DNA of 63,972 bases, counting the filler. It is 5 parts of 5 records of this genome, joined end to end, with 100 filler letters (N's around TTAATTAATTAA, not from the genome) between each part and the next. Parts side by side here need not be neighbours in the genome. Positions count along the whole stretch, not along the records: positions 1 to 22,517 come from SRR31147125_2688; 4 more parts are not named here. One strand, 5' to 3'. The translations under genes and the position numbers were made by a program. Below are positions 5,473 to 48,815 of the stretch, one piece after another; the stretch's first letter is position 1; every line of letters begins with the position of its first letter. The notes under the pieces are model-generated. The model was not told the DNA's origin. It saw only the letters and a program-made list of their open reading frames with translations, and searched no databases.

Positions 5473-6074
5473 CTAATTAATAGGTACGTATATAAAAGTA
5501 TTATCAATCTTTTTAACAGTTATTAAATGTTTAATATCATCAATAAATGATAAATCGCTATGCTCTAGATAAATATCATAGGTCACATGGTCTAAAAAGG
5601 TTTTATGAGAGATTTGATGAGCATCAATAAGTTGATCGATATGATTAATTAATGTATATGGGAAAGTTATTTGATAACCATACATTTCTTTTTTGTCATC
5701 AGTTGTGCGAGTTTGATCACTTCTGCAGTAGATTTAGCATATGCTCTAACCAAACCACCAGCCCCAAGTTTAATACCACCGAAATATCTGATAACGACAC
5801 ATAAAGTATAAGTTAGCTTGTGATGGTCCATCACATCTAAAATAGGAGGGCCTGCTGTGCCTTTAGGTTCTCCATCATCTTGATAGATTGCCCAATTTCT
5901 TTGATCGCCCAGGGTTGCAGCATAGCAGTAATGTGTTGCTTTAGCATACTTTTTTTTAGCATCACTTAAACAAGATGAAATGTCATCTTTTGTTTTTATC
6001 GGATATAGCATCGCAATAAAATCGGATTTATTGATGGTTATTTTATGTTCATAAATTTTATTTATTTCATACAT
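5473..6074 (-). CDS. yigZ: YigZ/IMPACT family protein, split by a probable sequencing frameshift near 5685
   Basis: KSDFIA, ATHYCYA, DDGEPKGTAG, RYFGGIKLGAGGLVRAY; C-terminal part continues in ORF 5473-5685 after an A run. Confidence 0.88.
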
Positions 6075-6161
6075 GTAGATTCACCGATTAAATTATATCA
6101 TATACTACAATGTTATGGTATTTTTTGATATAATATGATTAAACTCTAAAAGGAGAAATTT

Positions 6162-7013
6162 ATGGGTAAAACATTAGTTGTAGACACATCAACTGGAGGA
6201 TTAGATTATTATCCTTTCCATCATGATATAGAAGTACTTAGAATAAAAATATTTTTAAACGATAAAGGTTATTTAGATGGCACTGAAATGCGTGCTGATG
6301 AGTTTTATCAAAAATTAAAGGATCATCCTGATTTAATTCCAAAAACATCACAACCCTCAATCGGAGAAGTGATTGAATACTTTGAAAAGAAATATGAAGA
6401 AGGATATGATCAAATATATGTAACAACAATATCCGGACAATTATCTGGGACATATAATGCAATTTGTCTCGCTGCTGAAGAATTAAAAGATAAGATGAAT
6501 ATTCATGTGTTTGATACATATACAGTATGTTTTTCAGAAGGATTATTTGCACTTGAAGCATCAAGACTTATTAAAGAAGGAAAAACATTTGAAGAAATTG
6601 ATCATGTGCTTGAAGAAATGAAAAAAAATAATACCATTTTCTTTGCAGTTGATTCACTTGCATACTTAGTTAAAAATGGTAGATTATCAGGAGCTGCAGG
6701 ATTTGTTGGTAAATTATTAAAAATTAAACCAATATTACAAGTTCAATCAACAGGACAAATTGTATCTATTGAAAAAATTAGAAATACAAAAGTTGCATTA
6801 TCATCTATTGCAGATAAAATATTAGCTTATACAAATGGTAGACCATACGATGCATATATTTTATACACAGGTAATCCTAAATTAAAAGAACATTTTAAAG
6901 CAACCATTAAAGAAAAACTTCAATTAGATAATTTATATGAAGCACCATCTACACCAGTTGTAGGTGCACATGTTGGACCAGATGTTGTTGGTATAGGTGT
7001 GTTTATCAAATAA
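6162..7013 (+). CDS. degV: DegV/FakB fatty-acid-binding protein
   Basis: PKTSQPS, ISGQLSGTY, LVKNGRLS, LKIKPIL, VGAHVGP. Confidence 0.95.
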   Translation: MGKTLVVDTSTGGLDYYPFHHDIEVLRIKIFLNDKGYLDGTEMRADEFYQKLKDHPDLIPKTSQPSIGEVIEYFEKKYEEGYDQIYVTTISGQLSGTYNAICLAAEELKDKMNIHVFDTYTVCFSEGLFALEASRLIKEGKTFEEIDHVLEEMKKNNTIFFAVDSLAYLVKNGRLSGAAGFVGKLLKIKPILQVQSTGQIVSIEKIRNTKVALSSIADKILAYTNGRPYDAYILYTGNPKLKEHFKATIKEKLQLDNLYEAPSTPVVGAHVGPDVVGIGVFIK

Positions 7014-7016
7014 AGC

Positions 7017-7041
7017 AAAAGGAACCTTGACGGTTCCTTTT
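7017..7041. terminator. Bidirectional intrinsic terminator
   Basis: AAAAGGAACC-ttgac-GGTTCCTTTT between convergent genes. Confidence 0.8.
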
Positions 7042-7067
7042 ATTTTGATTAATTGATTTAATACTTA

Positions 7068-9128
7068 TCAAGCAATAGATAATGCATAAACAGCAGTATT
7101 TGCTAACGTTATGAGCGTAAATAAGCATGTGGTAAAGAATACTGAAGTCCAAACATTACCAGTTTTTTGAGATAGTCTTCTCATTAATATACCAGCAACT
7201 GATAATGTAGGTACTAATCCAACAGCTAAAATTCCACTTAATGAGAAAGAAGGATATGCTGCAACACCAGTTGCATATAACGTTCCATATTGATAAATTA
7301 AAAATAAGACGACAGGACCAGCTAGAAGTAGCGCAGCTAAAACATCTGCTTTCCAGCCTTTCATACCTTTAGTATTTACAAAGACAGTGACAGATGCAGC
7401 TAAGTAATAAATAAAGAATAAAGGTATGTATTTAAGTGCTGCAACAAATTGACGACTATTAAATATTTGAATAGCATATGTATAGAATCTAAAGTCAGTA
7501 AGGAATATCCATCCAACAATTGCAACAAATAATAAAACGATGGTTGTCATAGAAACAGCAATCAATAAACTTGATCCTAATTGTTTCAATGAGACTTTTA
7601 ATCCATAAGGATTAGAAATGTCTTGATGAACATTTAATAATGGTGTAACGATAAGCACTGAAAGAATAATTAAAAACGCACTACCAATTGCCCAATATAC
7701 AATAGTATTAATTGAAGGTGCACTCCAATAAGTGACGTTTGAAATAATTTGAGTGTTTGTCAAAAACCATCTAAAAGCTAATGCGATGACAATGATTGCT
7801 CCGCCATGGAAAGTAGTTTTTTGAGCATGTTTAACGCTGTTTTCAGCTTCTTTATTTATTGCTATTAACCAAGTTGCAATGAGTATAATGACAACCGCAG
7901 CAATTAAATAATACATAGCAGTCGCTAGATTAGCAAGATCAGCTGAACGATCCATCAATCTCGTCAAGAAGAAAACACTTAATAAAATAGATAATATAAT
8001 TGAAACCATCTTAATACCTTTTTTCTCAGGTGATAGCTTCACTTCATTTTCTTCTAAAGCAACATCATTTGCATAAACTTTTTTAAATACCGGTAAATTA
8101 GAAATTAAAGCAAACAATGGAAAAAACATCATAAATAATGATATAAGTCCAAGACCAGTAAATGCTTCTTTTAACCACCAAACTTGTGTTGTTGAACCTG
8201 TTTTAATGTCTAAAGTATCAAGATCATCAAGACCATATAGGTCTAATTGATAGGTAAATGCTTCTTCAAAGAATTCAACCATGTTACGACCAGATTCTAG
8301 TGACCATGTGTTTTGAGGATGTGTTTCATCAGGTGTATAAATAACCCTTTGACCACCATCATAATTATAGAATACACCAGCATCTGCTTCACCAGCTGCT
8401 GTTCTTCCTAAAAATGCAAGGCCAACTGCATCTTCTGTGTAGTCTTTATAATAGACTGAGCCTTCTTGAGTGTCTGAATTATCAAAAAAGAATTGATCAT
8501 AATGTGCTGCAATGACACCACTTGATCTAGATTTAAAATAAGTTTCAGGATCAGGTGTGAATACATATCTAAAATCAGCACCAACGGCTAGAGATGCTGC
8601 AATCATTCTATAACCAGATGTAGCATATTGTATTTCATCAAAAATAACAGCATATTCAGATGAATAACCACCCATTGAATGACCACTTACCCCTATCATT
8701 GCATTACCAGCATCATCTTTTAACACATAATCTTGGTCATACATATAGGTAACAGCATCATAAACTGCATTAACATAAAAACTAAAAGCAGCAGCTGTTT
8801 CCCATGATGAATCACCATGATCATACATATCAAAAGCTAATACAACATACCCACGTCTAGATAATTCAATTGCGCCGATTTCTTGCATTTCAGCATTATT
8901 GAGATATCCATGAGTCAAAATAACTGTTGGTGCAGGATTATCTGCATCGACACCTCTTGGGGTATATAGATAACCAGATAATTCACCGTTTTCTGTTTCA
9001 AATGAAATCTTATCCACCTTTACACTAAAAAATGAGTTTTGGACTAATGATGCGCCTAAACTAAATACAAGTGCAGTGATGACTAAGATAACTAGCCACT
9101 TAAGTGACTTAGACATATTTTTAAACAT
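7068..9128 (-). CDS. Membrane-embedded alpha/beta-hydrolase (serine esterase/lipase fold plus polytopic C-terminal domain)
   Basis: N-terminal TM, HGY oxyanion loop, GHSMGG nucleophile elbow, candidate Asp (YDQFF) and His (ETHP), then many hydrophobic segments. Confidence 0.85.
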   Translation of the reverse strand: MFKNMSKSLKWLVILVITALVFSLGASLVQNSFFSVKVDKISFETENGELSGYLYTPRGVDADNPAPTVILTHGYLNNAEMQEIGAIELSRRGYVVLAFDMYDHGDSSWETAAAFSFYVNAVYDAVTYMYDQDYVLKDDAGNAMIGVSGHSMGGYSSEYAVIFDEIQYATSGYRMIAASLAVGADFRYVFTPDPETYFKSRSSGVIAAHYDQFFFDNSDTQEGSVYYKDYTEDAVGLAFLGRTAAGEADAGVFYNYDGGQRVIYTPDETHPQNTWSLESGRNMVEFFEEAFTYQLDLYGLDDLDTLDIKTGSTTQVWWLKEAFTGLGLISLFMMFFPLFALISNLPVFKKVYANDVALEENEVKLSPEKKGIKMVSIILSILLSVFFLTRLMDRSADLANLATAMYYLIAAVVIILIATWLIAINKEAENSVKHAQKTTFHGGAIIVIALAFRWFLTNTQIISNVTYWSAPSINTIVYWAIGSAFLIILSVLIVTPLLNVHQDISNPYGLKVSLKQLGSSLLIAVSMTTIVLLFVAIVGWIFLTDFRFYTYAIQIFNSRQFVAALKYIPLFFIYYLAASVTVFVNTKGMKGWKADVLAALLLAGPVVLFLIYQYGTLYATGVAAYPSFSLSGILAVGLVPTLSVAGILMRRLSQKTGNVWTSVFFTTCLFTLITLANTAVYALSIA

Positions 9129-9160
9129 ATTTTTCTCCCTTCATATGTTTTAACAAATTA

Positions 9161-9227
9161 AAATAAAAAACGAAACAAAAACAATATATGTTTTTTTGCT
9201 TCGCTCGAATTCTCTAGCATTTAAGTT
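9161..9227 (-). promoter_or_regulatory. GlpP-type leader attenuator upstream of the hydrolase
   Basis: Minus strand AACTTAA-atgct-AGAGAattcGAG running into terminator GAGCGAAGCAAAAA/TTTTTGTTTCGTTT + T tract. Confidence 0.65.
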
Positions 9228-9237
9228 TTCCATTTTT

Positions 9238-9266
9238 ATGTTATCACTAAACATATTTATTGTCAA
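9238..9266 (-). promoter_or_regulatory. Sigma-70 promoter for the hydrolase
   Basis: TTGACA-17 nt-TAACAT with extended TG on the minus strand. Confidence 0.75.
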
Positions 9267-9296
9267 TTATAGAAGATCATTTAATTAATAGATATA

Positions 9297-9325
9297 TTGA
9301 CAAATGTATATTTATCTAGTAAAAT
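9297..9325 (+). promoter_or_regulatory. Sigma-70 promoter for glpP
   Basis: TTGACA-17 nt-TAAAAT. Confidence 0.8.
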
Positions 9326-9333
9326 CTAATTAT

Positions 9334-9403
9334 AAGTTAAGCACTGCAAGAGTAAAGAGCGCGATATGTCATGGGTAGTATTTTTGACGTCGCGTTTTAT
9401 TTT
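9334..9403 (+). promoter_or_regulatory. GlpP-type leader attenuator upstream of glpP
   Basis: AAGTTAA-gcactgca-AGAGtaaaGAG overlapping stem GAGCGCGAT..GTCA/TGAC GTCGCGTTT + T-rich tail. Confidence 0.65.
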
Positions 9404-9417
9404 GAAAGGGGCTTCAT

Positions 9418-9957
9418 ATGTTTTTCAACCAAAAAATATTACCCGCTATACCTAATCATCAAGCATTAAAAAAATTCATTGAATCGAATTACACATATGG
9501 TATATTAATGGGTTTTCAATTAGCACAATTACCTTTACTTATTGAAAAATGCCATGAAGCAAATAAAAAAGTGCTTGTTCATTCCGAATTAATCAAAGGA
9601 TTGTCTCATGATGAGTTTGGTGCAATATTTCTAATTCAAACACTCAAAGTAGATGGTTTAATCTCAAGTAAACCAAAGGTCATAGAAGTGTGTAAAAAAA
9701 GACATGTTATTGGTATATTTAGATTTTTCTTAAAAGATTCAATATCATTATCGCAATCTATTGCTATTGCCAATAAAATAGAACCTGTGTTTTTAGAAGT
9801 CCTACCAGCACATGCAACAGATATTTTATCCACCATTAAAGAACAAGTTAGAGCTGATATTTTAATGGGTGGGCTCATACAAAATATAGCACAAATTAAA
9901 AAATGTATAGATGCTGGTGCTATAGCAGTAACTGTTTCAAACCCTGATTTATGGTAA
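9418..9957 (+). CDS. glpP: Glycerol-3-phosphate-responsive antiterminator
   Basis: VHSELIKGL, DGLISSK, RFFLKDS, EVLP, MGGLI, GAIAVTVSNPDLW. Confidence 0.95.
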   Translation: MFFNQKILPAIPNHQALKKFIESNYTYGILMGFQLAQLPLLIEKCHEANKKVLVHSELIKGLSHDEFGAIFLIQTLKVDGLISSKPKVIEVCKKRHVIGIFRFFLKDSISLSQSIAIANKIEPVFLEVLPAHATDILSTIKEQVRADILMGGLIQNIAQIKKCIDAGAIAVTVSNPDLW

Positions 9958-9958
9958 C

Positions 9959-10020
9959 AAGTTAATCAAACATACAGAGATAAGAGAGAAAAACAATTTA
10001 ATTGTTTTTCTCTTTGTTTA
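9959..10020 (+). promoter_or_regulatory. GlpP-type attenuator upstream of the G3P dehydrogenase genes
   Basis: AAGTTAA...AGAGATAAGAGAG overlapping perfect stem AGAGAAAAACAAT/ATTGTTTTTCTCT; same architecture as the B. subtilis glpD leader as recalled. Confidence 0.8.
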
Positions 10021-10039
10021 TATTTAAGAAGGAGTTTAT

Positions 10040-11503
10040 ATGGATAAACAAACAAAAGTATATGATTATATCATCATTGGTTCTGGTATTATTGGTTCAA
10101 TGATAGCAAGAGAACTTAGTCAATATGATGTTAAAACAATCATACTAGAAAAAGAAAATGATATTGCAAATATCCAAACAAGTGCAAATAGTGCAATCAT
10201 TCATTCAGGACATGACCCAAAACCACATACATTAAAAGCTAAACTTTGTGTCGAGGGTAATCAATTATATGATGAACTTGAAAAAACAATGCACATTCCA
10301 CTTAGACGTACTGGAGCATTTGTTGTCGCTAGAAATCAAGAGGAACTGACATCGATTCATGATCTTGCTAAACGTGCAAAAATGAATGGTGTACCTTCTT
10401 TTGAATTGCTGGATCAAAAAGAGATTCAAAAACAAGAACCACACCTTTCTAAAGATATTATAGGTGCACTATCTCTGCCAACAACAAAAGTAACATTTCC
10501 CTGGGAGGTTGCTATTAAAGCATGCCATGTAGCCATTAACCATGGTGTAGCATTGAAACTAAATGCTGAAGTTACAAATATAGAGTATGAAGATTATATA
10601 TTTCATATAGAAATCAATCATGATGAGTGGTTATATGCTAAAAATGTAGTCAATGCAACAGGTGTTAAATCTGAAATCGTTACATCCTTTTTAGAAGTAC
10701 CACATTTTAAGGTTACGCCTAGACGAGGTGAATATTTTGTTCTTGATCGTGTTGTTGATGGTATGTTTGAACATGTTATTTATCCTGTACCTTCTAAAAA
10801 AGGAAAAGGTGTATTAATTACTCCTCAAACACATGGCAATATTTTATTAGGACCTACGAGTGATTTAACATCTGATGATAGACCATATACGACTAAAGAT
10901 GGATTAGCATATATTAAAACACATGTTAATGATATGTGTGATCATATACCATATCATCGCATCATTAGGTCCTTTACTGGTGTAAGAGCAAGCATCGACC
11001 AAGATGATTTTGTGATTGAATCATCAAAAAATTATAAACATTTTTATCAAGTAGCGGGTATTGATTCTCCAGGGTTAACTGCTGCACCAGCAATTGCGAA
11101 ATACTTGGTTCAAAAGATTATTAAAATGGATGCACCTAAGAAGAAAGATATAGATATGTCATTAAAACCATCGATTGTTTTAAAAGATTTAGCTATAAAA
11201 GAACAACAAGCATTATATGATAAAAATCACAAGTATGGACATATTGTTTGCCAGTGTGAACAAGTGAGTGAACAAGAGATTATTGATGCTATAGTTTCAC
11301 CTGTAGGAAGCCATACAATCAAAGGTGTTAAAAAGCGTTGTCGTGCAGGTGCAGGTACATGCCAAGGTAGTTATTGTCAATCTCATGTACTACGGATTAT
11401 TGCTAGAGAAACAAATAAAGATTTAAAAGATATTTGTTATGATCAAGTAGGAACACCAATACTTGCATCACCTACAAAGGAGAATGATAATCATGACTTA
11501 TGA
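10040..11503 (+). CDS. FAD-dependent glycerol-3-phosphate dehydrogenase/oxidase with C-terminal BFD-like [2Fe-2S] domain
   Basis: GSGIIG, TSANSAIIHSG, PRRGEY, IDSPGLTAAPAIA, CQCE...RAGAGTCQGSYC; follows glpP. Confidence 0.9.
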   Translation: MDKQTKVYDYIIIGSGIIGSMIARELSQYDVKTIILEKENDIANIQTSANSAIIHSGHDPKPHTLKAKLCVEGNQLYDELEKTMHIPLRRTGAFVVARNQEELTSIHDLAKRAKMNGVPSFELLDQKEIQKQEPHLSKDIIGALSLPTTKVTFPWEVAIKACHVAINHGVALKLNAEVTNIEYEDYIFHIEINHDEWLYAKNVVNATGVKSEIVTSFLEVPHFKVTPRRGEYFVLDRVVDGMFEHVIYPVPSKKGKGVLITPQTHGNILLGPTSDLTSDDRPYTTKDGLAYIKTHVNDMCDHIPYHRIIRSFTGVRASIDQDDFVIESSKNYKHFYQVAGIDSPGLTAAPAIAKYLVQKIIKMDAPKKKDIDMSLKPSIVLKDLAIKEQQALYDKNHKYGHIVCQCEQVSEQEIIDAIVSPVGSHTIKGVKKRCRAGAGTCQGSYCQSHVLRIIARETNKDLKDICYDQVGTPILASPTKENDNHDL

Positions 11504-12746
11504 TGTGATCATAATTGGTGGCGGTGCTGCAGGACTTGCAGCAGTTAATGCACTTAAAGATAAAGGACTAAAAGTCGGATTAATTGAACGATCAGAGCGT
11601 TTAGGTGGCATTCTTAATCAATGCATTCATCATGGTTTTGGTCTTCATGTTTTTAAAGAGATGTTAACAGGACCAGAATTTGCACAAAAACTTATTGATG
11701 AAATGAATGATTCAAACACTGATGTAAAACTAAACACTTCAGTTGTTGATATTAAAAAAGAAGATAATTTTATTATCAAATCTGCAAGTGAGCAAGATGG
11801 AATTTATCAAATATATGCAAAATCTATCATATTGACCAGTGGATGTTTTGAAAGGTCTAGAGGAGCAATTTCTATACCAGGAACAAGACCTCATGGTATT
11901 ATGACTGCTGGTCTTGCTCAAAAATATTTAAACATTGATGGTTATTTAGTTGGTAAAAAGGTGTTTATATTAGGTAGTGGTGATATTGGTTTAATTATGG
12001 CAAGACGCATGACATTAGAAGGTGCGAAAGTTTTAGGAGTAGCAGAAATGATGCCACATTCTAATGGTTTAAATAGAAATATTGTACAATGTCTTCATGA
12101 TTTTGATATACCATTATATCTATCACACACAGTGATTGATATTAAAGGAGAAAAAAGCTTAGAATCTGTGACGATTGCAAAGTTAGATGCATCATTTAAT
12201 CCTATTAAAGGTAGTGAAAAAACATTTGATGTAGATACATTGTTATTATCAGTGGGTCTTATTCCTGATATAAAAGTTTTATCATCTATAGACCCAGTTT
12301 ATGATAAAAAAACAAAAAGCATTCAAGTCGATCAAAATTATGAGTCAACTGTTGAAGGATTATTTGCATGTGGGAATGCACTACATGTGCATGATTTAGT
12401 CGATGATGTTGTATTAGAAGCTAGACGTGCAGCACATGCAGTAGAAGTATATTTAAATCAGATTCAAAAAGAAAAAACATATCAAGATATTTATCATCAT
12501 GATCAAATTGCATATACGATGCCTCAACATTTATCATCACATGGATATAGCCAAGATCAATTAAGCATTTTATTTAGAACAAAAAAGAAGTATGAAAAAG
12601 TAATATTTATAGTTATGCAAGAAGATCATGAAATATATCATAAAACACATCAGTTTGTTCATCCATCTGAGATGAATAAAATTAAAATTGATGTAAGCCA
12701 AATAGATTTAAACAAATCTATATATATAGACATAAAAGAGGTATAA
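11493..12746 (+). CDS. NAD(P)/FAD-dependent oxidoreductase (partner of G3P dehydrogenase)
   Basis: GGGAAG, LGGILNQCIHHGFG, GSGDIGLIMARR, CGNALHVHDLVD; RBS supports start at 11493. Confidence 0.88.
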   Translation: MTYDVIIIGGGAAGLAAVNALKDKGLKVGLIERSERLGGILNQCIHHGFGLHVFKEMLTGPEFAQKLIDEMNDSNTDVKLNTSVVDIKKEDNFIIKSASEQDGIYQIYAKSIILTSGCFERSRGAISIPGTRPHGIMTAGLAQKYLNIDGYLVGKKVFILGSGDIGLIMARRMTLEGAKVLGVAEMMPHSNGLNRNIVQCLHDFDIPLYLSHTVIDIKGEKSLESVTIAKLDASFNPIKGSEKTFDVDTLLLSVGLIPDIKVLSSIDPVYDKKTKSIQVDQNYESTVEGLFACGNALHVHDLVDDVVLEARRAAHAVEVYLNQIQKEKTYQDIYHHDQIAYTMPQHLSSHGYSQDQLSILFRTKKKYEKVIFIVMQEDHEIYHKTHQFVHPSEMNKIKIDVSQIDLNKSIYIDIKEV

Positions 12747-12748
12747 TT

Positions 12749-13093
12749 ATGGAAAAAGATATGATTTGTATTATGTGTCCTAAAGGATGTCATTTACACA
12801 TTGATAATCATAAACAAGTATCTGGCAATTTTTGTCCTAGAGGGAAAAAATATGCATTAGAAGAAATAACAAATCCTAAAAGAGTGCTTACCAGTACAGT
12901 AAAAACTATATTTAAAGATCAACCAAGACTATCTGTAAAATCTAAAGAAGCGATACCTAAAGCACTCATATTTGAGGCTATGCATGCTTTAAACCATGTG
13001 ACTGTATCGAAACATGTCCATATAGGAGATGTCGTGGTGCATGATTTATGCCATACAGGTGTTGATTTAATTGCAACAAAAAATATTACATAA
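12749..13093 (+). CDS. DUF1667 CxxC metal-binding protein
   Basis: CIMCPKGC, GNFCPRG, PKRVLTSTV; usual third gene of this cluster. Confidence 0.88.
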   Translation: MEKDMICIMCPKGCHLHIDNHKQVSGNFCPRGKKYALEEITNPKRVLTSTVKTIFKDQPRLSVKSKEAIPKALIFEAMHALNHVTVSKHVHIGDVVVHDLCHTGVDLIATKNIT

Positions 13094-13101
13094 AAAAATC
13101 A

Positions 13102-13881
13102 TCATTTTTTGATGATTTTTTTTCTAGAGATTGTTTTCTTATGTTTTATCTTTTCAATTTTCTCAAGATTAATAAAAACTTTTTCTATGGCAGTATTTAA
13201 ATCTTTTTCATTAGACATTAATTTAATACTCATTTTAATGATTTTTTCTTCAAACAAGACAAGACTTAAATAAAGAAGAAATAAAATAATAGTTGCAAAA
13301 AACCAAATTTCAAATAAAGCGCTATGTCTATAAATGATAATCATTGTCATAGATCCTATCCAAATAACAGATAACCATATACTAATAATCGCTCTAAGAC
13401 GTGGGTTTTCATTTGATATCCAAAGTGAAAATGGAATAAGTGCGAGTGTATAAAAGAGTGCAAGCAAAACTGAAGATGCAACATGTAAGTAGTGAAGTAC
13501 AGGTAGTGTATCTTTTAAAGCAGGTAAAACACCAGTTGCAACTAAAAAGAAGGTAGCAAGGTATAAAAATGTATACGTTCGTTTATTACCATAATTCTCG
13601 AGTCTTAATAATGCGAGAAAACCTAATTCAATTGCAATTCCACATATAATGGACCACACAATAAATAAGATACGATAATTAAAAAAATTTCCAATATTGC
13701 TTAATGTATAATGAAAAGGATTTTCAAGTGTTCCAAATATAAAAGTAAAGACAAGTGCAAGTATTAACATGCTCATCACACTTGTCCTTGTTTTTCTTTG
13801 TTGTGTTAATTCTTTTTGTATATCATATAAATTCTTTTTTTCCAACTCTTGTATTATTTGTTCATAATCTAGCTCAATCAT
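13102..13881 (-). CDS. DUF998-like polytopic membrane protein
   Basis: About six hydrophobic helices, YTLSNIG and LHYLHV motifs. Confidence 0.6.
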   Translation of the reverse strand: MIELDYEQIIQELEKKNLYDIQKELTQQRKTRTSVMSMLILALVFTFIFGTLENPFHYTLSNIGNFFNYRILFIVWSIICGIAIELGFLALLRLENYGNKRTYTFLYLATFFLVATGVLPALKDTLPVLHYLHVASSVLLALFYTLALIPFSLWISNENPRLRAIISIWLSVIWIGSMTMIIIYRHSALFEIWFFATIILFLLYLSLVLFEEKIIKMSIKLMSNEKDLNTAIEKVFINLEKIEKIKHKKTISRKKIIKK

Positions 13882-13956
13882 TACATCACCCCAAGTATAA
13901 TCAAATTATACACGAAATAACATCAAGATTTCAATGATATTGAGGTTTTTAGATAT

Positions 13957-15669
13957 TTATAATTGATCATGAAAAGTTGCATGACGGTAATTTTGAATCA
14001 AAGAAGTGAAGACATGTGACCAAGATTTCTTTTTTGTAAATAGCAATGCATTTTTCTTTAGCATTTGATACTTATCTTTATCAAGCATTAAATCCATAAT
14101 TTTATTTGTGATCGCATCAACATCATCTACAGGACATAAATAACCATTGTATCCTGAAATAATATTTTCTTTCACACCGCCAGCATTAACACCGATAACA
14201 GGCAGTCCAGAAGACATGGCTTCTAATACAACATTCCCTAGAGTTTCGCTTGGTGAAGGGAAAACAAATAAATCAGAAGATGCATAAATCTCTTTTAATT
14301 CTTGTTGAGTTTTATAACCTGTAAATGTTATTGAGGGATGACTTTTAGTTTTTAACTCATTTAAATAGGGGCCATCTCCTGCAATAATTAATTCAACAGG
14401 AAAAGATTCTTTAATGAGTTTATGATAGACATGAATGAGTGTATCAATATGCTTTTCTTTAGAAACTCTACCCACATATAACAATAAAAACGTTTCATTA
14501 GATGCAAGTTTTGCTCTAAGAGTTTGATTGTAATGTTTAGGAGAGAAGAGCTCTTGTTCGATACCTCTACCAAATATAGATACATGTTTAAAGCCTTGAC
14601 TTTCTAATAGATGTTTTGTTTCGTGACTTGGCGTAAATGTCATTTGACTTTTATTATGAAAATGTCTGAAATATGACCAAGCTATCGGCTTTAAAAATGA
14701 AAGTTTATAGTAAGGTAGATATTGTACAAAATTTGTTGAAAAGTTAGTCACATATGGAATAGAACGTTTTTTAGCGTAAGTTGCTCCAAAATGACCCATT
14801 GAGAATTCTGTCATATGATGAATAATTGTAGGTTTAAATTCATCTAATACACGATATATTTTTTTCTTGAATAACTTTGGTAATGCAATCACCGTATCTT
14901 TATAAAAGAATAAGCGAATACCAGGTACTCTATGAATAGACATATGTGGTTCAACTTTAACATAATTATCTTTATATTTTGGAGAGACTAATAAATAGGG
15001 GATGTGATGAAAATCAAGAAATTTTAGGTACTGATATAAAGTGTTTGAAACTCCGTTGATTTGTGGATAAAATGTATCTGTGAAAATTGCAATTCTTGGG
15101 GGTTGTTCTAGTTTTCTTGATTCTATGACATACATTTTTTTGTATGTAAAAATAAGAAGGTCACAAACTCTTTTAATGAGTAACAATGCATCTTCTAAAT
15201 CACGTTTAGGATCTGGAAGCTGATGTTGGTGAGAAAGATAGAAGTCATTTAAATCATCTTTAATCGTTTCATATGACTGAATGTATTTTACATGATAAGA
15301 AATATGTTTGGTCAGAATTTTTTGTTGTTCTATTTTATATTCATAAAGTAGATGTTCAGCAATGTTTTTTTTGATGTAGATAGGATTTGCATGATATGTA
15401 CATGCATAATCAGCTAAATAATGGGTGATGATACCAAGTTTAAATCCAAAAGCTTCGCGATGATGTTTTTTACTTAGAAGTTCTTCGATCAAGCTTATTA
15501 AAAAATCTAGTGAATCTGGTATGTTGTGCGCATGCGTCTTATAATATTTATTAAAATCAGGTGCCGCACTTCCTTTAATAAATTGTGTTCTAGAAATTAA
15601 GTCATGATCATCAGGTAAAAGTTCGTCATAAATCATTCTTGAAATTTTGTGATGTGTAGGTGTTAACAT
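13957..15669 (-). CDS. Fusion of Zn-dependent phospholipase C-like domain and GT4 glycosyltransferase
   Basis: N-half: THH, GSAAPD, GIITHYLADYACTYH, HLLYE; C-half: IAIFTDTFYPQINGV, GRGI..ELFSP, VGRVSKEK, FPSPSETLGNVVLEAMSSGLPV; one continuous frame. Confidence 0.85.
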   Translation of the reverse strand: MLTPTHHKISRMIYDELLPDDHDLISRTQFIKGSAAPDFNKYYKTHAHNIPDSLDFLISLIEELLSKKHHREAFGFKLGIITHYLADYACTYHANPIYIKKNIAEHLLYEYKIEQQKILTKHISYHVKYIQSYETIKDDLNDFYLSHQHQLPDPKRDLEDALLLIKRVCDLLIFTYKKMYVIESRKLEQPPRIAIFTDTFYPQINGVSNTLYQYLKFLDFHHIPYLLVSPKYKDNYVKVEPHMSIHRVPGIRLFFYKDTVIALPKLFKKKIYRVLDEFKPTIIHHMTEFSMGHFGATYAKKRSIPYVTNFSTNFVQYLPYYKLSFLKPIAWSYFRHFHNKSQMTFTPSHETKHLLESQGFKHVSIFGRGIEQELFSPKHYNQTLRAKLASNETFLLLYVGRVSKEKHIDTLIHVYHKLIKESFPVELIIAGDGPYLNELKTKSHPSITFTGYKTQQELKEIYASSDLFVFPSPSETLGNVVLEAMSSGLPVIGVNAGGVKENIISGYNGYLCPVDDVDAITNKIMDLMLDKDKYQMLKKNALLFTKKKSWSHVFTSLIQNYRHATFHDQL

Positions 15670-15851
15670 AAAACCCTCCATAATACGCTATACCTATATT
15701 TTAAATCTCTATATAAGCCACCAACATATCTTTACAAAAGATATACACATATATAACATAACTACATTAAAAACAATAAAAAACAAACATTAGCGGTGTT
15801 TTTACACTATCAATACATATTAATAATTGGTATAATATGACTGGTGATAGA

Positions 15852-17000
15852 ATGAGAACATTAGAAAATGCTAAAATGGTATTAAAAATATTAAAAAAAC
15901 ATGGTTATGAAGCATATATCGTCGGCGGGGCTGTTAGAGATCACATCTTAAAGATGCCTTTAACAGATATCGATATTACGACAAATGCAAAACCTTATCA
16001 AGTCGGTAAGATTTTTAACATGAAACCTACGGGACTTAAATATGGGACTGTTACAGTTCTATTTAGAGATGAAAAATTTGAAATAACGACTTATCGATTA
16101 GATGGTCCCTATGAAGATGATAGACATCCTGATCGTGTGACATTTGCAGAAACTGTAGAAGAAGACGTGATTAGGCGTGATTTTACGATTAATGGTTTAC
16201 TAATGGATGAAAATATGGAAATATTTGATCACGTAGACGGAAAAAAAGATATAGACGCGAAGTTTATTCGAGCAATCGGAGATCCTTATTTAAGATTTAG
16301 TGAAGATGCACTACGTATGTTAAGAGCTATCTATTTTCAGTCGAAGCTAGGTTTTCAAATTACAAAAGAAACAAGAGATGCGATGTTTGATTTAAAAGAT
16401 CGCTTAAAAAATGTGGCTATGGAACGCATCCTAGCAGAACTTATTAAAATACTTAAAGGTAAACACTTGAAAAAAGCATTAAAAACAATGGTTACAACAG
16501 GTATTCACGAAGTGTTGCCTGGACTAGACAAGGGTATCGCATTTATTGCAAATCAAGATGAAATGCCATTTGTTGATGTATTTTTTACGATGTGCTTTAC
16601 GCTTAACCGTGGTATTGTGCCATCGAAATGGAAGTTTTCTAATAAGCAAAAACATCGTTATTTAACAGCAGCAAAACTTGCCAATACTAAAACAAAATTT
16701 GATGCAGTAGACTTATATACGTATGGTATTGATTTATGTTTACTTGCTGCACGTGTTAATTATATGTTAAAAAGAGAAAGACTTATCCAAAATGAACTAT
16801 TGACATTGTATGATCAACTGCCTATTCAAAGTGAGTTGGATTTAAAATTAAAGCCATATGAAATGATGGATATGCTCAATAAAAAAGCTGGTGCTTGGCT
16901 AAAAGAAATTCAACATAAAATGGTACTTGCTATTTTAAATGGACAGTTAGAAAATAATAAAGAAGATCTTAAAGATTTCTTATTAAAAGAAATGAATTGA
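15852..17000 (+). CDS. cca: CCA tRNA nucleotidyltransferase
   Basis: VGGAVRD, DIDITT, RRDFTING, EDALRMLRA. Confidence 0.95.
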   Translation: MRTLENAKMVLKILKKHGYEAYIVGGAVRDHILKMPLTDIDITTNAKPYQVGKIFNMKPTGLKYGTVTVLFRDEKFEITTYRLDGPYEDDRHPDRVTFAETVEEDVIRRDFTINGLLMDENMEIFDHVDGKKDIDAKFIRAIGDPYLRFSEDALRMLRAIYFQSKLGFQITKETRDAMFDLKDRLKNVAMERILAELIKILKGKHLKKALKTMVTTGIHEVLPGLDKGIAFIANQDEMPFVDVFFTMCFTLNRGIVPSKWKFSNKQKHRYLTAAKLANTKTKFDAVDLYTYGIDLCLLAARVNYMLKRERLIQNELLTLYDQLPIQSELDLKLKPYEMMDMLNKKAGAWLKEIQHKMVLAILNGQLENNKEDLKDFLLKEMN

Positions 17001-45317: not shown

Positions 45318-46549
45318 ATGGAATTTTATAATATGAAAACTCGATCTGGTTCTGAAGAAAAACGTCTTACCATTGTACAAAAATACGGTGGTAGTTCACT
45401 TGCCAATCCTGACTATATTAACCGGGTTGCCCGGAATATCGTTAAGAAAAAGGAAGAAGGTGTCGATCTGGTTGTGGTTGTATCGGCTATGGGCAAAACA
45501 ACGGATGAGTTTATTCGGCTTGCCCATGCGGTAAATCCAAATCCGGATCGTCGGGAATTGGATATGCTGTTGTCAGTTGGGGAGAGAATGTCAATTTCAC
45601 TTGTCGCTTTAGCTATCAATTCAATCGGAAAATACAATGCTATCAGTTTTACGGGTAGCCAAATTGGTATTATCACAGATACCAATCATACACAAGCCAG
45701 GATATTAGAGGTAAAAGGGCATCGATTGCGGGAAGCTTTAAAAGAGGATAAAATTGTTGTTGTTGCCGGCTTTCAGGGTGTATCTGTCAATAAGGAAATT
45801 ACGACTCTTGGCCGGGGGGATCTGATACAACGGCAGTGGCTTTGGCTGCGGCTCTGGATGCGGATTACTGCGAAATCATGTCAGATGTTGATGGTATTTA
45901 TTCTGCAGATCCCAACAAAATATCTACGGCTCAACGTATTGACCGAATACATTATGACCAGGCACTTGAAATGGCTTCTGCCGGTGCAAAGATGCTTCAT
46001 AGTGATTCTGTAGATTTTGCAAAACGTCACAATGTAAAACTGTCCCTTGGATCCTCTTTTACCGGGCATGTTGGGACCATTGTAACAGATGAAGAAATGA
46101 ATTCTGATTGTGTCACCGGAGTTGTTGTTGATCCAAATATTGTGATTTTGCGTTTTTCCACACCGGAAGAAAAAGGGTTATCTTTGCCCCATTCTTTATC
46201 AAAAGCGCAAATCCGAATAAAAATATGGCAATGTGTGCGAGGTTTGGGGATAATAGGTGTTTCACAAAACGATGTCACTTTAGCGCAGAGACATTTAAAA
46301 GAAATTACTGAAAGCCTGGTCATTCAGGAAGAGTGGGCCTTGTTATCCATTATTGGCACAGGTGTGGGATTAGGCAGCCACTCTGCAGAGGAGGTTTTCT
46401 TTGCTTTGCAGCGCCTTAACATTCATTTTGATGTAGTGCTTTCAGGTGAGTTGTACCTTAAGATCCTAGTTCCGGCCGAGATGGCGGATCAGGCTTGTGA
46501 AGAGCTTCATAACGTTTTTATAACGGAACAAGAAAAAAATAGCAATTAA
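45318..46549 (+). CDS. lysC: Aspartate kinase, probable sequencing frameshift at G run ~45814-45819
   Basis: QKYGGSS, VVSAMG, AGFQG, TTLGRG|GSD restored by one extra [12 protein letters not shown] in second ORF. Confidence 0.92.
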
Positions 46550-47904: not shown

Positions 47905-48815
47905 GTGTTACAAGATATGGTTTTTAATTTTCCAAAACACGTTCAGGTTTACGAGAATATTCCTTTAGAGAGATATACAAGCATACGAATTGGTGGAAAA
48001 GCACAATATGTTGCAGAAGTGTATAGTCAGGATGATCTAATCGAAATTTATCAGTTTTGTCGTCAACAACATATTCGGTTCCTGACACTTGGTCATGGTA
48101 CCAATGTATTTTTCTCGCAAAAGGGATTCCCGGGGCTTGTTGCTGTCCTTAAATTCGAAAAAATTGAGAACTGTGGTGATAGCCTTGTGCGAGTTGATGC
48201 TGGGGCGCCTTTGTCCGCTTTGAATCGATATTGTCTGGAAAATTCCTCGCAGGATTTGAATTTTCGTCCGGAATTCCAGGTACCGTTGGCGGGGCCATAT
48301 ATGGCAATGCAGGTGCCTATGGGAAAAACGTGGGACAGCATTTGGAAAGAGCGAAAATAATATTATCGGATGGTTCCATCATACAGGTGACAAGAGAATA
48401 TTTTGAATTTGCCTATAGGTATTCAAGGTTAAAAAGAGATCCCGCTATTATTTTGGAAGCAGAATTTCTGTTCCAACCGGGAAAATATCAGGTCATAAAC
48501 GAAAAAAGAGAAGGTATACTGGAGTTACGGCGTAAAAAATTACCTTCAAAAGATGTACCAACCGCGGGTTCCTATTTTAAAAATATAAAGGATGATTTAG
48601 GAAATCCCATTGCTGCGGCAAAATATTTGGATGCTATTGGTAGTAAAGAAACAAGCGTTGGGGACGCAGGTGTGCACCAGAAGCATGCTAATATTTTTTT
48701 TAACAAGGGACATGCAACGGCAGATCATGTTTTGCAGTTAGAGGATATTTTAAGAGATCGGGTTTTAGATCAATTCGGAATCTGTCTCGAACGGGAGGTT
48801 ATGTATATTGAATAG
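47905..48815 (+). CDS. murB: UDP-N-acetylenolpyruvoylglucosamine reductase, probable sequencing frameshift near 48245
   Basis: IRIGGKA, LGHGTN, GIPGTVGGA.YGNAGAYG, AGSYFKN, KHAN, LEREV. Confidence 0.93.

Follow-up and report, generated by a model that had tools for sequence, protein, structure and literature searches.

The subject of this analysis is a 9.5-kb region (positions 6162 to 15681) of a stretch of DNA of 63,972 nucleotides, referred to here as the window, and above all a large membrane hydrolase encoded in it, which we call Hyd. The region is a mosaic, in which a glp module made up of hyd, glpP and the three genes of a putative glycerol-3-phosphate (G3P) oxidoreductase of the FngABC type (about 7068 to 13093) is flanked by unrelated backbone lipid genes. 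Set between these backbone genes, Hyd is probably a serine esterase that is integrated in the membrane, faces outward, belongs to the GlpP regulon and either supplies glycerol or admits it. A first-pass annotation had read all eight genes of the region as a single GlpP-controlled lipid-scavenging system. Open reading frame (ORF) calls place all eight where that annotation had put them, with family matches as it had named them (see the table below), and their contiguity stands, but they are not co-oriented, being spread over both strands in at least five transcription units. The grouping of the hydrolase with GlpP and the G3P dehydrogenase was borne out by conserved synteny, by the co-occurrence of Hyd and GlpP and by a shared leader architecture.

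Relatives of Hyd are numerous: a word-indexed protein search returned 464, and at least 455 matches were found in a collection of species-representative genomes. They are 55 to 78% identical to Hyd across the Acholeplasmataceae and Izemoplasmatales and about 40% identical in Erysipelotrichales, Fusibacter, Planococcaceae, Bacillaceae, Clostridia and a Fervidobacterium. From the genome matches we took a sample of 80 loci, one per species genome, and clustered the neighboring genes. The most recurrent families were glpK (27 loci), GlpP (26), the dehydrogenase subunits (23, 20, and 19) and GlpD (6); no MIP, GDPD or G3P-permease family recurred among the neighbor clusters present in three or more of the 80 loci. 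For the 74 loci with a called Hyd ORF, a glp gene was located within 6 kb in 36 and immediately adjacent in 31 (glpK in 18, glpP in 14), and of the 44 loci whose sequence extends for 5 kb or more to each side, half (22) had one. This linkage was found in at least five gene orders. In the Acholeplasmataceae, hyd is divergent from glpP-fngABC(-glpK), and the order is glpP-fngABC-glpK-hyd in the Izemoplasmatales, hyd-glpK in the Erysipelotrichaceae, hyd-glpK-fngA in Fervidobacterium (Thermotogota), and glpP-hyd-glpK-glpD in both Bacillaceae and Planococcaceae. The glp order of Bacillus subtilis has glpF between glpP and glpK, so that in the last two families Hyd takes the place of glpF. The view that the regulon is lipid fed rather than glycerol fed finds no support in these data, glpK being the commonest adjacent neighbor of Hyd and present, over the family cut-off, in all five related genomes tested.

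The association with GlpP was also seen at the level of whole genomes. In a 201-genome sample of the class, GlpP was present in six of the seven genomes with a strong Hyd match compared to 18 of the 193 others (Fisher p = 1e-5, uncorrected for phylogeny). Three of these six genomes (G007, G075, and G165) have both genes about 95 to 140 kb apart, indicating that the association survives the loss of linkage. We found no published description of the Hyd family in a glp operon, in a search that did not extend to subscription journals.

The leaders of the module provide a third line of evidence. A hairpin with a U run behind it is predicted in the folds of all three spacers, those preceding hyd, glpP and fngA, and each contains AAGTTAA (AACTTAA before hyd), followed by AGAG and by a GAG(C/A)G that overlaps the hairpin's 5' arm. 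In the Hyd leader, the two boxes (AGAG-N-GAGCG) are located at 9194-9228 and the hairpin at about 9172-9202, with its U run. The glpP leader has the AAGTTAA, AGAG and GAGCG motif together with a terminator-like hairpin at about 9357-9397 and a U run, and the fngA leader has AAGTTAAT, AGAG and GAGAG, the latter overlapping the 5' arm of a 15-pair terminator hairpin at 9983-10015 that is followed by a T run (fold z-score of -2.83). Regular expressions for the motif meet a terminator at only three sites in the whole window, namely, these three leaders. Among relatives, the core motif was found in 23 of 60 Hyd leaders, 8 of 22 glpP leaders, 7 of 11 fngA leaders and 2 of 5 glpD leaders, versus 6 of 321 leaders of other genes (p = 1e-15, uncorrected for phylogeny).

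Two profiles were then compared with the window. The first (R1), built from 19 glpP, fngA and glpD leaders of relatives with Hyd leaders excluded, had only two significant matches there, the fngA leader (9957-9991, E value of 0.0014) and the glpP leader (9332-9363, E value of 0.0078). Over the 80 loci (1.33 Mb), R1 gave 36 matches, which were classified by comparing their coordinates with the ORF maps; 17 belonged to the training set, and the other 19 comprised 10 Hyd leaders, 8 other glp leaders and a single one elsewhere. The second profile (R2), built from 21 Hyd leaders of relatives, had the Hyd leader of the window as its single significant match (E value of 7.6e-4). A motif in the 5' untranslated region combined with an intrinsic terminator is thus found upstream of the glp genes, the Hyd leader being recognized by the regular expression and R2 and not by R1. 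Neither the regular expressions over the 64-kb window nor R1 nor R2 revealed a GlpP-type leader before DegV or the PLC-GT4 gene, and an Rfam scan of positions 5900-16000 gave only two sub-threshold chance matches. Many Hyd leaders of relatives carry TGTAAGCGCTTA between the first two boxes, a stretch resembling the cre consensus. Separately, many Hyd leaders of the Izemoplasmatales type (L004, L006, L012, L014, L015, L018-L024, and L029) have an AT-rich near-palindromic element (TTATATAA ... TTATATAAAA) between the terminator and the ribosome-binding site, and this element is absent from the leader of the window.

In B. subtilis, the glp regulon (glpP, glpFK, glpD, and glpTQ) follows an antitermination scheme in which GlpP has five target genes, according to PMC9604022. 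The window resembles this system in the GlpP protein itself (PF04309) and in having leaders close to the promoter in which a putative binding motif and an intrinsic terminator precede catabolic genes, and the Bacillaceae and Planococcaceae relatives keep the order glpP-X-glpK-glpD. However, X is a Hyd-type membrane esterase (686 amino acids in the window) instead of glpF. The window also differs in that its dehydrogenase is of the predicted FngABC type rather than GlpD, that its glpP carries a leader of its own, and that it has no glpK, glpF, glpT or glpQ.

Pfam matches of Hyd to alpha/beta-hydrolases are weak and limited to residues 51-230, and no match falls on residues 310-686, leaving the C-terminal 370 residues uncovered. 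The AlphaFold2 (AF2) model (predicted local distance difference test [pLDDT] score of 83.3) has an N-terminal helix (residues 8-30), an alpha/beta-hydrolase domain (about 36-300) and ten membrane helices (317-678). The hydrolase domain combines the fold of a serine esterase with a nucleophile elbow, G-x-S-x-G, and a conserved acid and histidine in the canonical order, the columns of Ser151 (in GHSMGG), Asp211, and His270 being invariant in 21 sequences. The strand order of the model points to Asp211 and His270 as the other members of the triad. In fold searches, Z scores of 18 to 20 were obtained for this ectodomain with carboxylesterases and lipases, among them esterases of the feruloyl, PET, and monoacylglycerol types, although at the sequence level the best match had an E value of only 7e-6, and searches with the full-length protein picked up the esterase domain only. 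A homologue stored in the Protein Atlas (P0042) bears just the generic cluster names "alpha/beta hydrolase" and "PET hydrolase-like." By charge count, the distribution of Lys and Arg fits an N-in topology with the esterase outside; the hydrolase domain would then face outward, and a conserved TDFR hairpin of the membrane domain would be located on the same outer face.

Folded alone, the C-terminal domain reached a pLDDT of 86.9. Among the 50 best rows of a wide structural aligner, the only domain-covering matches were SpdC (Z score of 10.0, root mean square deviation of 4.2, and 208 residues) and Rce1 (Z score of 8.4 and 203 residues), both with values too low to be safe for helical bundles; Foldseek gave nothing at an E value of ≤0.001 (SpdC had 0.55). 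Intramembrane proteases of the CPBP/Abi type have conserved catalytic Glu-Glu and His motifs. These are missing from Hyd, as the invariant columns of 29 C-terminal domains, which include Q6, W8, K11, E12, W170, G200, D236, F237, and R238, contain no His and no Glu pair. Likeness to MIP channels was not found either, there being no PF00230 match and no MIP chain in the 50 best aligner rows or in the listed Foldseek rows, although a missing fold match is weak evidence. The family of this domain comprises 887 representative clusters at an E value of ≤0.001. We scanned 60 long relatives among the 150 listed; 45 had an N-terminal alpha/beta-hydrolase match, 15 had none, and not one had another domain. 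Judged by these proteins, the hydrolase and the membrane domain are an obligate pair, and for this reason a scaffold or substrate-access role fits the membrane domain better than that of a stand-alone channel. The complex of SagB and SpdC (PDB 6u0o) is comparable in joining an extracytoplasmic hydrolase to a multihelix membrane domain, which in SpdC is a polytopic scaffold of the CPBP/Abi type, but there the two are separate proteins, whereas Hyd has both in one chain, and SagB is a glucosaminidase, whereas Hyd would be a serine esterase.

The three genes that follow glpP show the subunit order of FngABC (PF01266 plus PF04324, PF07992, and PF07892). The nearest solved structure to the first is L-alpha-glycerophosphate oxidase (4x9m, E value of 2e-45), and searches of solved structures with the three subunits gave no Fng chain at the thresholds applied. 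On this architecture, the enzyme is assigned to the FngABC type and would oxidize G3P to dihydroxyacetone phosphate (DHAP). FngABC, an enzyme that was purified from Pyrococcus furiosus, is an oxidoreductase of G3P that depends on ferredoxin and NAD (Schut, Poole, Adams 2026, PMC13689815). It consists of an FAD G3P dehydrogenase, an FAD oxidoreductase, and a DUF1667 protein, the latter defining FngC; glpK is reported in the FngABC operon of the organisms named, and glycerol from lipid turnover is proposed as the substrate in P. furiosus, which is without GlpF (PMC13689815). The window has three adjacent genes of the same subunit types, in the order of PF2005-PF2007 (PMC13689815), and in the relatives analyzed here glpK is found in the same loci as fngABC. 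The FngABC type is further defined by a ferredoxin-dependent, electron-bifurcating reduction of NAD+ by G3P, and the assignment of the window enzyme comes from architecture. The passages of the P. furiosus paper found by a term search mention neither GlpP nor an esterase or lipase neighbor (PMC13689815).

A scheme for the module can be put together from these parts. GlpP, by analogy with its B. subtilis counterpart, would bind G3P and allow readthrough of the terminators in the hyd, glpP and fngA leaders. Hyd, anchored by its N-terminal helix and its ten-helix C-terminal domain, would expose the serine-esterase domain on the outer face, where it would most likely cleave glycerol esters at the membrane surface, either mono- and diacylglycerol-type lipids or other acyl-glycerols. 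The freed glycerol would be converted to G3P by GlpK, and this G3P would both feed the FngABC-type enzyme, for oxidation to DHAP, and induce more Hyd, in a putative feed-forward loop.

Several observations weigh against such a role of Hyd. Its substrate is proposed from genomic context alone, and the step from glycerol to G3P is not encoded in the window, which has no glpK. No glp gene was found within 6 kb in 38 of the 74 loci, including three (L001 to L003) with a Hyd that is 76 to 78% identical to that of the window. The loop of the catalytic histidine was modeled with low confidence (residues 269-271, pLDDT of <50). R1 does not reach the Hyd leader of the window at an E value of ≤10, a miss that is partly technical, because the MAFFT alignment behind R1 misplaces the AGAG box in some rows, and the fngA leader has an E value of only 2.9 under R2. 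In the window, the Hyd leader is tied to its two companions by the short two-box regular expression and by close relatives. Finally, neither the co-occurrence nor the leader statistics are corrected for phylogeny.

The features of the region are collected in the table. DegV and Hyd are convergent and meet at a bidirectional terminator, Hyd and glpP diverge from a 290-bp spacer, and FngC (DUF1667) and the DUF998-like gene are again convergent, with 8 bases separating their stops.

Table 1. Features of the analyzed region, in coordinates of the 63,972-nucleotide window
Feature	Position	Strand	Evidence
DegV-family fatty-acid-binding protein	6162..7013	+	PF02645, 254.6 bits; TIGR00762, 268.7 bits (cut-off 99.7)
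Bidirectional terminator-like hairpin, DegV/Hyd	7017..7041	both	10-11 pairs then T runs, found on both strands
Hyd, 686 aa, predicted serine hydrolase plus membrane domain	7068..9128	-	Weak alpha/beta-hydrolase Pfam matches
Hyd promoter-like site (9266..9238) and leader	9160..9266	-	Promoter scan, fold, motif regular expression, R2
glpP promoter-like site (TTGACA-17-TAAAAT) and leader	9297..9405	+	Promoter scan, fold, regular expression, R1
GlpP, glycerol-3-phosphate-responsive antiterminator	9418..9957	+	PF04309, 159.8 bits (cut-off 27; profile positions 1-173 of 173)
fngA leader	9957..10025	+	Terminator scan, fold, R1
FngA-like FAD-dependent G3P-oxidizing subunit	10040..11503	+	PF01266 (DAO), 215.7 bits; PF04324 (BFD-like [2Fe-2S]), 40 bits
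FngB-like FAD/NAD(P)-binding oxidoreductase subunit	11463..12746	+	PF07992 (Pyr_redox_2), 96.3 bits; start codon uncertain
FngC-like DUF1667 subunit	12749..13093	+	PF07892, 110.3 bits
"DUF998-like" polytopic membrane protein	13102..13881	-	Sub-threshold DUF998 (PF06197), 18.4 bits (cut-off 30)
Zn-PLC-like domain fused to GT4	13957..15681	-	PF00882, 51.2 bits (cut-off 26.8); PF13439, 68.6 bits; PF00534, 128.6 bits

The genes on either side of the module behave differently from it. In the survey of the 80 loci, the hyd-glp linkage proved to be conserved, but the neighborhood drawn by the first-pass annotation, with DegV, the DUF998-like gene and PLC-GT4 next to the hydrolase, was found again only in L041, the locus of the closest syntenic relative (G001). 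The DUF998-like gene and the PLC domain accompany Hyd in that locus alone, and DegV is present in three loci and adjacent to Hyd only there. In L041, glpK and a fragment of an ISL3 transposase lie between fngC and the DUF998-like gene. Genome G191 has no Hyd or GlpP match over the family cut-off and retains the flanking genes in the order HD, cca, PLC-GT4, Abhydrolase_3, HD_5, GDSL lipase, DUF998-like, DegV, UPF0029, CotH, and atp, with identities to the window of 55 to 96%. This indicates that the glp module occupies a variable slot between backbone genes. With this order, adjacency to Hyd in L041 alone and no GlpP-type leader, the inclusion of DegV, the DUF998-like gene and PLC-GT4 in the same system finds no support; they are backbone genes of the lineage, not under GlpP control. 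In G191, the slot between PLC-GT4 and the DUF998-like gene (L083, 11649-14367) holds an Abhydrolase_3 esterase, an HD_5 protein and a GDSL lipase, and the slot thus seems to collect ester and lipid hydrolases.

As for the individual flanking proteins, DegV is clearly a member of its family but falls short of the FakB1 equivalog (NF038249; 178.9 bits compared to a cut-off of 350). The membrane protein called DUF998-like is present as annotated, but its label is weak, the match being below the cut-off (Table 1). It is 67% identical in both L041 and G191, and the G191 orthologue has no Pfam match at an E value of ≤0.001. Beyond DegV, a gene of the UPF0029/DUF1949 (YigZ-like) family at 5473-6074 (minus strand) is split into two overlapping ORFs. 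Contigs from three other runs carry one extra T behind 5688, so the window has a 1-nucleotide indel at this place, which stems either from misassembly or from a frameshift particular to the strain.

The PLC-GT4 gene adjoins cca. Its proteins in relatives start at Met5 of the window's version, making 15669 the likely true start, and no signal peptide was seen by inspection; the protein is predicted to be cytoplasmic. The same fusion was found in 42 among 120 listed homologues. In the PLC-like domain, H10, D42, H52, H87, D91, H97, H110, and E114 are invariant in 20 fused homologues; they would correspond to the metal ligands of the solved bacterial enzymes. A phmmer search of this domain against the PDB gave no PLC chain, only chance rows. 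Glycosyltransferases of the GT4 type have two conserved glutamates eight residues apart, and the corresponding E479 and E487 are invariant in 20 aligned sequences. The GT4 part does not reach the cut-off for alpha-monoglucosyl-diacylglycerol synthase (NF049988; 92.8 bits compared to 400), and its best NCBIfam match, the GlcNAc-phosphatidylglycerol synthase model, is also below its own (131.7 bits compared to 480). A search for the PLC domain with a single-protein query in a 121-genome sample of the order found it in only two genomes, which reflects low sensitivity and not rarity, given the 42 fused homologues among those listed.

It is a fair hypothesis that PLC-GT4 is a one-protein converter of phospholipid to diacylglycerol and then to glycolipid, unconnected to the glp module. 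The nearest known counterpart is PlcP-Agt, a phospholipase C and a glycosyltransferase that act in lipid remodeling under phosphate stress, according to PMC4796936. Like it, the fusion pairs a phosphodiesterase, which may form diacylglycerol, with a glycosyltransferase, which may then act on this product. They differ in that the two predicted activities are fused in one cytoplasmic protein in the window. They differ also in domain type: PlcP is a calcineurin-type metallophosphoesterase, and the domain found here is Zn_dep_PLPC (PF00882).

The absence of glpK, glpF, glpT and glpQ from the contig, noted by the first-pass annotation, holds for the window: no FGGY, MIP or GDPD family member was found in the 61 ORFs scanned (15 plus 36 plus 10), and tblastn with two glpK proteins and one GlpD of relatives gave nothing there. 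Contigs of two other studies bridge the junction between FngC and the DUF998-like gene without glpK. The missing glpK at this end of fngC is therefore real, and it says nothing of the genome as a whole. As G001 has a second glpK about 7 kb from a MIP gene and away from the module, a glpK elsewhere in the organism of the window is likely by analogy.

The second part of the window has to be treated with caution. From about 32 kb on (about 32000-63972), the GC content rises from about 0.30 to about 0.40, and this half holds the peptidoglycan genes murE, murD, murA, and murB; MurB and MurB_C were found in none of the five related genomes. Its PrmA has no orthologue in G001 or G191, and its pyrophosphatase is 40% identical compared to 75 to 96% for genes of the first half. 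This half looks foreign to the first, possibly through a chimeric join or as a large foreign island, and the usable contig is for that reason shorter than it appears. Two of its genes, one similar to aspartate kinase (45318-46549) and murB (47905-48815), are each split into two overlapping ORFs and are either frameshifted pseudogenes or the result of indel errors. After the analyzed region, between 18778 and 29665, there is a galactan/galactoside utilization cluster with an AraC regulator, a GH53, a GH2 fragment, a sensor kinase with an AraC-type response regulator and a sugar ABC transporter.

Some features of Hyd loci in other genomes are also recorded here. In G001, the Hyd gene (C1:537454-539507, L041 10001-12060) is broken into residues 1-121 and 119-686, and a second, more distant Hyd paralogue is located at C1:350754-352685. 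A calcineurin-like metallophosphoesterase is found directly upstream of Hyd in three Erysipelotrichaceae loci (L052, L054 [8969-9799], and L058), and 13 of the 80 loci have a short-chain dehydrogenase (SDR) gene no more than 6 kb from Hyd. In one Acholeplasmataceae metagenome-assembled genome, Hyd is followed at a distance of about 1.4 kb by a gene for heliorhodopsin (L001, 13502-14293; PF18761, 315 bits).

How Hyd would serve the glycerol pathway can be read in more than one way. It might itself be the route of entry for glycerol, alone or coupled to hydrolysis, with the ten-helix domain conducting glycerol in place of GlpF, which we regard as rather unlikely. In three loci (L070, L073, and L076, from strains of Bacillus pinisoli, Sporosarcina luteola, and Oceanobacillus limi, respectively) Hyd lies between glpP and glpK, the slot of glpF in B. 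subtilis, in genomes without MIP, and glpF is not among the recurrent neighbor clusters of the 80 loci. The family of G004 was sampled with 101 genomes, and MIP was found in none of the five Hyd-positive genomes and in 56 of the 96 others (Fisher p of 0.015, uncorrected, and the five may be one clade), and the C-terminal domain is highly conserved without an assigned function. Against this, 7 of the 15 Hyd-positive genomes tested do have MIP (8 do not), among them G001, and we take the MIP distribution as suggestive only. In addition, the fold of the domain is not channel-like, since the best matches, both of them weak, are with scaffolds or intramembrane enzymes (SpdC and Rce1), and its constant company with the hydrolase fits substrate access or anchoring. 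Glycerol, moreover, crosses membranes without a carrier. A broader version, in which Hyd is a nutrient-capture protein whose esterase and SpdC-like membrane domain cleave acyl-glycerols and pass the glycerol to GlpK, replacing GlpF in many Bacillota glp operons, is in our opinion unlikely. We would give still less credence to the idea that Hyd acts on the membrane lipids of the cell itself, recycling glycerol from lysolipids and acylglycerols of turnover instead of harvesting external esters. A membrane-embedded protein with a scaffold-like domain weakly resembling SpdC would be suited to such a task, and lipid-turnover glycerol is what has been proposed for FngABC in the GlpF-less P. furiosus (PMC13689815). 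Hyd is also widespread in the wall-less Acholeplasmatales and in the Izemoplasmatales. However, the charge count puts the catalytic domain outside the cell, and glycerol-type induction together with the cre-like TGTAAGCGCTTA stretches suggests a gene for nutrient acquisition.

The remaining alternatives concern the extent of the system. As first proposed, glycerolipids would be broken down by a single unit under GlpP control, with DegV receiving the acyl chains, the dehydrogenase the glycerophosphate, and PLC-GT4 turning the diacylglycerol into glycolipid; this now seems very improbable. Its parts are indeed all lipid related and adjacent both in the window and in L041, the same neighborhood collects an Abhydrolase_3 esterase and a GDSL lipase in G191, and the putative Zn ligands of the PLC-like domain are invariant, as are the two glutamates of GT4. 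But the unit would consist of five transcription units on two strands, two of its members (DegV and PLC-GT4) have no GlpP-type leader, and its flanking members accompany Hyd in few loci (the PLC domain and DUF998-like gene in 1 of 80 loci, DegV in 3 and adjacent in L041 only). In G191, where neither Hyd nor GlpP was found over the family cut-off, all three flanking genes are kept, and the usual partner of Hyd is glpK, not an enzyme that forms G3P. At the other extreme, the linkage of Hyd and glp genes could be accidental and Hyd unrelated to glycerol. The 38 loci without a nearby glp gene would fit this, as would the most distant homologues in Clostridia, most of which are not linked to glp genes, but a glp gene is immediately adjacent in 31 of the 74 loci, in at least five gene orders and across several taxonomic orders plus the Thermotogota; Hyd and GlpP co-occur even when unlinked, and the leader motif is common to hyd and the glp genes. 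An accidental linkage is therefore strongly disfavored, and we attach hardly any probability to it. The reading of Hyd as an outward-facing esterase of the GlpP regulon is the one we prefer.

DegV and PLC-GT4 should not be annotated as GlpP regulated. Under the preferred reading, a large uncharacterized family of two-domain proteins receives its first functional context. Hyd would be a sixth, widespread candidate member of the glp regulon beside the five B. subtilis targets given in PMC9604022. If it harvests glycerol from esters, the degradation of lipids or other esters would be linked directly to an induction that senses G3P. If true, this would also offer a testable answer to the question of how MIP-less Bacilli and the wall-less Acholeplasmatales and Izemoplasmatales feed their glycerol pathway.

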